Of a stretch of 5,469 nt of DNA, positions 2,730 to 3,201 are shown piece by piece; position 1 is the first letter of the stretch, and each line of letters begins with the position of its first letter. Both the position numbers and the translations under genes were made by a program. The stretch is taken from the IMG/VR virus record IMGVR_UViG_2740892230_000031, positions 1 to 5,469 of that record; one strand, 5' to 3'. The stretch is from a virus (taxonomy: Duplodnaviria; Heunggongvirae; Uroviricota; Caudoviricetes). The notes under the pieces were generated by a model. It had not been told where the DNA came from, made no database searches, and saw only the letters and a list, made by a program, of their open reading frames with translations.

Positions 2730-2987
2730 ATGAAAATCACATTTGAAAGTTACGGTTTAACAGCAAGTGTGGTTATATCCAGCTCTATATTCGAAAGGCG
2801 CAAACATCAGCATATCGTTGATGCAGTGAAACTCAAAGCCCCGGAAGTTACCGTCACAACACATGGACTTTTCAGGATACGAACGACGTTGACTACACAC
2901 ACCTCTCGGCATGCCGTGTTTATGATATGGCACTCAAGGAATACAACCAGTGTTCGTCCTGATCCAGCGCGGGCAGTCTTTCGTTGA
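2730..2987 (+). CDS. Hypothetical ORF, possibly the 5' part of a frameshifted gene
   Basis: ATG 2730 preceded by GAGGA (2718-2722, 7-nt spacer). The track ORF starts at a GTG at 2583 with no RBS. The distal part of this frame (RIRTTLTTHTSRH...) looks non-coding, while another frame reads protein-like text over the same bases. Confidence 0.3.
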   Translation: MKITFESYGLTASVVISSSIFERRKHQHIVDAVKLKAPEVTVTTHGLFRIRTTLTTHTSRHAVFMIWHSRNTTSVRPDPARAVFR

Positions 2988-3201
2988 TGCCAACAACTAT
3001 CCGGTAGAAATATGCAAGGTAACTCTGACTCAGGTGATCTACCGAAGGCTCGACGGCAGAACCAGAGCCACTTCAATTGGTGCATTTAATGAAGAATTTG
3101 AGCGAATCGAGCACAACGAACTGCATATGATTAAAGCGGAAATTGAGAAGGAAAAGCATATTGCCAGCCTTCGAAAAATGCGCCGTACATCAATCAACTG
3201 A
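2950..3201 (+). CDS. Hypothetical ORF, possibly the 3' part of the same frameshifted gene
   Basis: Frame is open from 2924. The only early start is GTG 2950, with no clear SD. Protein-like, charged C-terminal text (AFNEEFERIEHNELHMIKAEIEKEKHIASLRKMRR). TGA at 3199-3201 is followed directly by a terminator. Confidence 0.3.
   Translation: MFVLIQRGQSFVDANNYPVEICKVTLTQVIYRRLDGRTRATSIGAFNEEFERIEHNELHMIKAEIEKEKHIASLRKMRRTSIN

Follow-up and report, generated by a model that had tools for sequence, protein, structure and literature searches.

The one DUF4222 protein to have been characterized is RgdR (ECs1581) of O157:H7, which activates LEE1 (type III secretion) and represses motility (PMC3378721, PMC10877973). 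Partial P4 ancestry has been inferred for the element that carries it, Sp7/CP-933C (OI-51) (PMC3378721, PMC10877973), and RgdR orthologues are reported to share >77% similarity over 99 aa and have an RGD motif at residues 20 to 22 (PMC3378721). PHROG 1001, a second, widespread family, whose members are prophage proteins of about 74 to 77 aa encoded by genes of their own, includes the 74-aa protein STM0896.1n of Fels-1. Here we describe a locus at which a gene of each family is found, at positions 2730 to 3201 of a 5,469-nt stretch of E. coli DNA that was analyzed as a whole and is referred to below as the window. Features lie on the plus strand unless stated otherwise.

Positions 909 to 5469 match the int-proximal end of the O104:H4 Stx2a prophage and its relatives (Oslovirus P13374, TL-2011c, phi191, and Ss-VASD), for which wrbA is the insertion site. 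From left to right, the genes encode a 143-aa hypothetical protein, an MT-A70 methyltransferase, a DUF1382 protein, and a DUF1627 protein, followed by the 2730-to-3201 region and the genes for excisionase, integrase, and WrbA; int, xis, wrbA, and the other neighbors match the O104:H4 Stx2a prophage. The window is the int-proximal end of an Stx-type lambdoid (Oslovirus-like) prophage in wrbA, and the 2730-to-3201 region holds two small accessory genes of the early-left region, transcribed towards xis and int.

Several features surround this region. A gap of 10 Ns at 899 to 908 links DNA that is not neighboring in the reference prophages: positions 1 to 898 are 100% identical to a YgiW/YdeI-family OB-fold gene and the start of an LPD38-domain gene, with matches in EDL933 and many further O157:H7 or other STEC genomes, and in O104:H4 the ant gene stands to the left of the position equivalent to window 909. 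Because the segments 1 to 898 and 909 to 5469 are not adjacent in the references, either much of the prophage lies hidden in the gap or the scaffold was misjoined. At the other end of the window, wrbA (4891 to 5469) has a 5′ end supplied by the phage, its ATG overlapping the integrase stop; this is a known result of Stx-phage integration in wrbA, and the same 192-aa WrbA is annotated by RefSeq in O104:H4. The DUF1627 gene (2233 to 2586) is 354 nt long in the window and in 2011C-3493 and 381, 390, or 399 nt long in other near-identical prophages. In the 143-nt spacer that follows it, an ORF beginning with TTG (2608 to 2733; MRNNPRTLILFFLSLMTGGILLFAGTTLFIFVARLTARIMT) would encode a strongly hydrophobic peptide of 41 aa; it is annotated by PHANOTATE only, in phage phi367. 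Two minus-strand ORFs, at 2807 to 3085 and at 3039 to 3281, the latter present as ORF03 in the annotation of P14437, were judged spurious; the plus-strand genes have family support.

A preliminary description of the window had read 2730 to 3201 as a frameshifted gene or pseudogene of about 155 aa that hops across three frames and was split by two single-base indels. Three-frame translation confirmed the three stop-free stretches and the quoted peptides, as well as a good ribosome binding site, the Shine-Dalgarno sequence GAGGA at 2718 to 2722, 7 nt 5′ of the ATG at 2730. The frame of this ATG reads MKITFESYGLTASVV...KAPEVTVTTH and is open to the TGA at 2985 to 2987. The middle frame is indeed open from 2822 and reads ...WTFQDTNDVDYTHLSACRVYDMALKEYNQCSS up to a stop, but this stop is the TGA at 2960 to 2962, and the end given as 2969 was incorrect. 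The third frame, reading VFVLIQRGQSFVDANNYPVEICKVTLTQ..., is open to the TGA at 3199 to 3201. Comparison with homologous prophages revealed one true frameshift, so that the notion of a frameshifted gene holds for only part of the region. The first hop had been placed at 2860 to 2875; the sole real frameshift is a 1-nt deletion at 2896/2897, about 30 nt further downstream. The second, placed at 2945 to 2960, involves no frameshift and is the boundary of two genes, for which all intact relatives show an overlap of 13 nt. We are highly confident that the region comprises one true frameshift and one ordinary gene boundary and that it contains no 155-aa gene.

The deletion was identified by alignment with 2011C-3493, phi191, phi367, and other relatives, in which intact copies read GACTACAACACACC and the window reads GACTACACACACC (site 2896..2897); relative to the commoner, ancestral allele, one A is missing (GACTACAACAC to GACTACACAC). 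Between 2580 and 3260, the alignment of the window with O104:H4 2011C-3493 (682 aligned columns) shows this single 1-nt gap and one SNP (3079/3080). When the A is restored, a 77-aa ORF runs from the ATG at 2730, reading MKITF...TVTTHGLFRIRTTLTTTHLSACRVYDMALKEYNQCSS and then a stop. We refer to this ORF (“orf77,” PHROG 1001 family) as gene 1. Its frameshifted allele in the window spans 2730 to 2987 and consists of 56 native codons, 29 out-of-frame codons, and a stop (85 aa): loss of the A changes the frame after codon 56, leading to 29 unrelated residues and the stop at 2987. In line with this, the window protein departs from the family alignment after residue 56. The stranded C-terminal coding part, THLSACRVYDMALKEYNQCSS with its stop (2897 to 2962), lies in another frame than its start and is the genuine portion of what had been described as the middle frame; its reading is conserved in the 82%-identical copy of STEC1590 and in homologues from other genera. 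Upstream of the deletion, the conserved reading keeps to the first frame over 2860 to 2896 (GLFRIRTTLTT, with G46 and F48 invariant in homologues from other genera). As this first-frame reading is the conserved one, the peptide WTFQDTNDVDY, which the preliminary description had drawn from the middle frame, is a chance open stretch and not coding sequence.

All family members share a conserved MKI start, and the ATG at 2730 is aligned with it. A GTG at 2583 was rejected as the start of gene 1, since family members all begin at MKI and the STEC1590 copy is without the upstream extension. The frameshifted allele has, however, been annotated from this GTG in Ss-VASD, where gp04 (window 2583 to 2987) is a 134-aa “hypothetical protein,” and PHROG 29320 (136 positions) was built on this 134-aa form. 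Neither the 134-aa protein nor PHROG 29320 represents a real unit; both result from artefactual extension of a frameshifted allele to the GTG further upstream. The annotation ambiguity is corrected once the region is read as encoding a PHROG 1001 protein of about 77 aa and a DUF4222 protein of 83 aa.

The intact 77-aa ORF is annotated in phi191, phi367, 2013C-4361, STEC1590, and phiSTEC1589-Stx1c, and in the last four of these it is followed by the 83-aa ORF. PGAP leaves the intact ORF unannotated in some genomes, for example 2011C-3493, and gene 1 is thus a marginal gene call. Scans of the 77-aa protein against Pfam and NCBIfam gave nothing significant, with Ribonuc_P_40 and NifU_N below their cutoffs. 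Together with the frequency of frameshifted and truncated gene 1 variants, the PGAP omissions and the lack of a Pfam or NCBIfam family might be taken to mean that 2730 to 2962 is a noncoding spacer with chance ORFs and that only the DUF4222 gene is real. We regard this as very improbable in view of the good Shine-Dalgarno sequence and ATG, of the confident structure model described below, and of several lines of comparative evidence, as follows. The STEC1590 copy, which is 82% identical at the DNA level and lies in a different context (directly after exo), has both ORFs at the same lengths and no indel. It differs by 42 substitutions in the nonoverlapping part of gene 1, distributed over codon positions 1, 2, and 3 as 16:5:21, and the dN/dS ratio (Nei-Gojobori) is low in the gene 1 frame only (0.32, versus 0.56 and 2.3 in the other two frames). 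Searching phage genomes with tblastn recovered single-piece homologues of 30 to 35% identity that extend across the frameshift site. They occur in Salmonella phage Fels-1, Escherichia phage phi467, and several Klebsiella prophages and phages, as separate genes of 73 to 74 aa that precede unrelated genes. A profile search returned 1138 clusters (90% identity) in Citrobacter, Salmonella, Klebsiella, Enterobacter, and E. coli, with lengths of 73 to 80 aa among the best 120 of the 1138 clusters, and the family alignment has a conserved length and 12 invariant columns.

Conserved columns flank the frameshift: G46 and F48 precede it, and R63 and E71 follow it. The whole N-terminal core (M1, G9, S18, H26, D31, G46, and F48) is present in the frame of the ATG at 2730, and the invariant R63 and E71 of the C-terminal helix are encoded at 2897 to 2962 but out of frame with the start. 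Correspondingly, the window ORF matches PHROG 1001 at positions 1 to 59 of 75 (E = 2.9e-23), short of a full-length match (about 75 positions), and the intact allele matches it at positions 1 to 74 (E = 8.2e-30). Judged by sequence, the window copy is a truncated, frameshifted member of PHROG 1001. AlphaFold2 gave a confident model of the intact 77-aa protein (pLDDT 89.4, pTM 0.77) with the order beta-beta-alpha-beta-beta-alpha, in which the last helix comprises residues 58 to 76. The frameshift would remove this predicted C-terminal helix, and on account of its absence we infer that gene 1 has lost its function in the window, where it is most likely a pseudogene. Conceivably, the window allele still yields a product, either the frameshifted protein of 85 aa or the 134-aa version that begins at GTG 2583. 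Fold searches against PDB and BFVD gave no match with an E value of ≤0.001 except the protein's own homologue in phage 24B; the fold matches were generic two-layer alpha/beta proteins (ACT-like, KH, DCoH, and LAGLIDADG halves; TM scores of 0.4 to 0.6), and a function for gene 1 based on such generic matches was dropped.

The third frame corresponds to gene 2 (2950 to 3201), which encodes an intact 83-aa DUF4222 protein with a GTG start. Its Shine-Dalgarno sequence, AAGGA, is located at 2936 to 2940, 9 nt 5′ of GTG 2950. The protein matches Pfam PF13973 (E = 2.2e-15; 56.4 bits against a cutoff of 27; residues 4 to 53 on profile positions 2 to 52 of 53) and, over its full length, PHROG 285 (residues 1 to 83 on positions 1 to 82 of 83). 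RefSeq annotates DUF4222 at the same coordinates in every relative inspected, and dN/dS against the STEC1590 copy is 0.10. In intact alleles, the TGA of gene 1 lies at window 2960 to 2962, within a 13-nt overlap with gene 2 that is kept in the 82%-identical STEC1590 copy; gene 2 therefore has what marks an overlapping pair, namely, its own Shine-Dalgarno sequence, a start just 5′ of the upstream stop, and conservation of both in relatives. This is the usual compact layout of phage early genes, and the two genes are probably translationally coupled. In the window, gene 2 is likely translated independently from its own start and, given these start signals of its own, would be unaffected by the deletion, although the site of termination for ribosomes arriving from upstream would lie 38 nt into the gene instead of 13 nt. 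A terminator-like GC hairpin, AACCGCCTTCGGGCGGTT followed by TTTTCTT (3203 to 3226), stands right after the DUF4222 stop and before xis. Independent lesions of the DUF4222 gene occur elsewhere: a group of Stx2a-converting phages from Japan has an 11-nt deletion at window 2995 to 3005, and in phi191, where only the 77-aa ORF is annotated, the DUF4222 ORF is broken by a 1-nt insertion at window 3108.

With both genes delimited, there is next to no probability that two single-base indels broke up what had been one gene of about 155 aa. Three consecutive open stretches can be joined on paper, but every intact relative has two ORFs with the 13-nt overlap, and in other genera the gene 1 homologues are freestanding, with unrelated genes as neighbors. 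The match to PHROG 285 begins at the start of the downstream ORF, with the DUF4222 domain following from residue 4, and the peptide WTFQDTNDVDY needed for the junction is not conserved, whereas GLFRIRTTLTT, in the first frame, is. The preliminary description had itself taken separate ORFs in homologous phages as an observation that would speak against a single gene, and homologous phages were found to have exactly these, 77 aa and 83 aa long and in the same arrangement. No fused protein of about 155 aa was found in the best 120 of the 1138 clusters or among 87 proteins obtained by an exhaustive HMMER search of 1.84 billion representatives. We give equally little credence to programmed ribosomal frameshifting as a means of joining the frames, another option raised earlier. 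The frame pattern itself, and nothing else, speaks for it; the commoner allele and all distant homologues are read in a single frame and need no frameshifting, the two-frame state is the minority allele, there is no slippery heptamer at ACU-ACA-CAC-ACC (2890 to 2900), and no structured RNA element of any Rfam family was found in the window.

We then considered how common the deletion is. Alleles were counted with a 62-nt probe centered on the deletion site, a match of 100% over the full length denoting the deletion. Among 147 complete E. coli genomes with the module, 21 (about 14%) carry the deletion and 126 have the undeleted 63-nt form (98.4%), which was taken as intact on the basis of the 38 of these 126 records that were listed. 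The 21 genomes include O104:H4 2009EL-2050 and 2009EL-2071, FDAARGOS_348, an O111:H8 strain, a ground-beef isolate, and several Okinawan bovine isolates. Among phage records, six have the deletion, representing five distinct phages (Ss-VASD, P13771, P14437, PPwrbA_EH2201, and Stx2_H27V05_wrbA), and 77 are undeleted. The preliminary description had allowed for a sequencing indel, and a sequencing or assembly error in a genome that truly has an intact 77-aa gene would be in keeping with a draft that contains an N gap, with a single-base difference in an AA dinucleotide, and with an undeleted allele that is about 6 times commoner. We nevertheless consider such an error quite unlikely. The exact allele occurs in 21 complete genomes of several serotypes and sources and in five phages, P14437 matches the window at 100% over 511 nt (window 2700 to 3210), including the linked SNP at 3079, and the site is not a long homopolymer. 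Since the identical allele recurs in these complete genomes and distinct phages, the deletion is probably a circulating, already deposited allele rather than a draft error, as far as sequence records can tell. Literature searches with phage 24B locus names gave nothing, and the indel is not mentioned in a letter citing P13374.

The deletion is found on two SNP backgrounds, 2618A/2798G (A/G) and 2618C/2798C (C/C), and the intact allele is found on A/G, A/C, and C/C backgrounds (2618/2798). The indel consequently fails the four-gamete test against the two flanking SNPs (2618 and 2798): all four gametes are present, implying recombination or recurrence. The same position appears in a different setting in O157:H7 Stx1-type prophages, in which homology to the module starts exactly at the indel site (CAACACACC...), directly next to a truncated IS3-family transposase fragment; in these prophages the 5′ portion of gene 1 has been replaced, and the endpoint of the rearrangement is the 2896/2897 nucleotide. 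Recombination plus coincidence is the simplest explanation for the two backgrounds and the shared endpoint. That 2896/2897 is a recurrent break or indel hotspot, and not the site of a single inherited mutation, seems unlikely to us. Were the site truly hypermutable, it could serve to switch gene 1 on and off, or it could be a place at which illegitimate recombination of Stx phages preferentially occurs. In the simpler case, a spontaneous 1-nt deletion would have inactivated a small early-left accessory gene. The other inactivating lesions, namely, the 11-nt deletion, the 1-nt insertion in phi191, and the gene 1 replacement in the O157 Stx1 prophages, suggest that the gene pair is dispensable and decays repeatedly.

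The allele frequency suggests that a fair share of Stx prophages can do without gene 1. The indel could also be of minor use in typing: within the O104:H4 Stx2a phages, the deletion is present in the 2009 Georgian and some Norwegian isolates and absent from the 2011 outbreak strain. The deletion, the two-gene architecture, the family membership, and the allele frequency are direct observations; they introduce no new mechanism, and the deletion allele and both protein families are already in public databases.

Compared with RgdR, gene 2 is likewise a small, basic, prophage-borne PF13973 protein. It differs in length (83 aa versus 99 aa), BLASTP shows negligible pairwise similarity (E = 0.71; 9 identities in 27 residues), it has RGQ at the position aligned with the RGD motif, and it belongs to a lambdoid int-xis region, whereas RgdR adjoins a primase gene. 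Membership of gene 2 in the RgdR subfamily was rejected, and in view of the negligible similarity the regulatory role of RgdR was not transferred to it. The 74-aa PHROG 1001 proteins such as STM0896.1n are homologous to gene 1 over residues 1 to 74 (30 to 35% identity), share its MKI start and G46, F48, R63, and E71, and are encoded in the early-left position near xis and int, as in the window; unlike in the window, their downstream neighbors are not DUF4222 genes, and the last 20 or so residues are in frame. Closer still are the intact ORFs of Stx phages, represented by phi191 gp49, WP_021351637.1 (2013C-4361), and the 126-aa call G3CFG9 (phage 24B), which are 97 to 100% identical to gene 1 and have the same Shine-Dalgarno sequence, ATG, and downstream DUF4222 gene. 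They possess the extra A at 2896/2897 and hence, in contrast to the window, a single frame ending in ...TTLTTTHLSACRVYDMALKEYNQCSS and a stop. The nearest counterparts are P14437 (HG792105) and Ss-VASD gp04/gp03 (NC_028685; 99.8% identity over window 2700 to 3210), which have the same deletion allele and the same DUF4222 gene at the same place by xis and int. They differ from the window in annotation only, nothing being annotated on the plus strand of P14437 in the gene 1 and gene 2 region.
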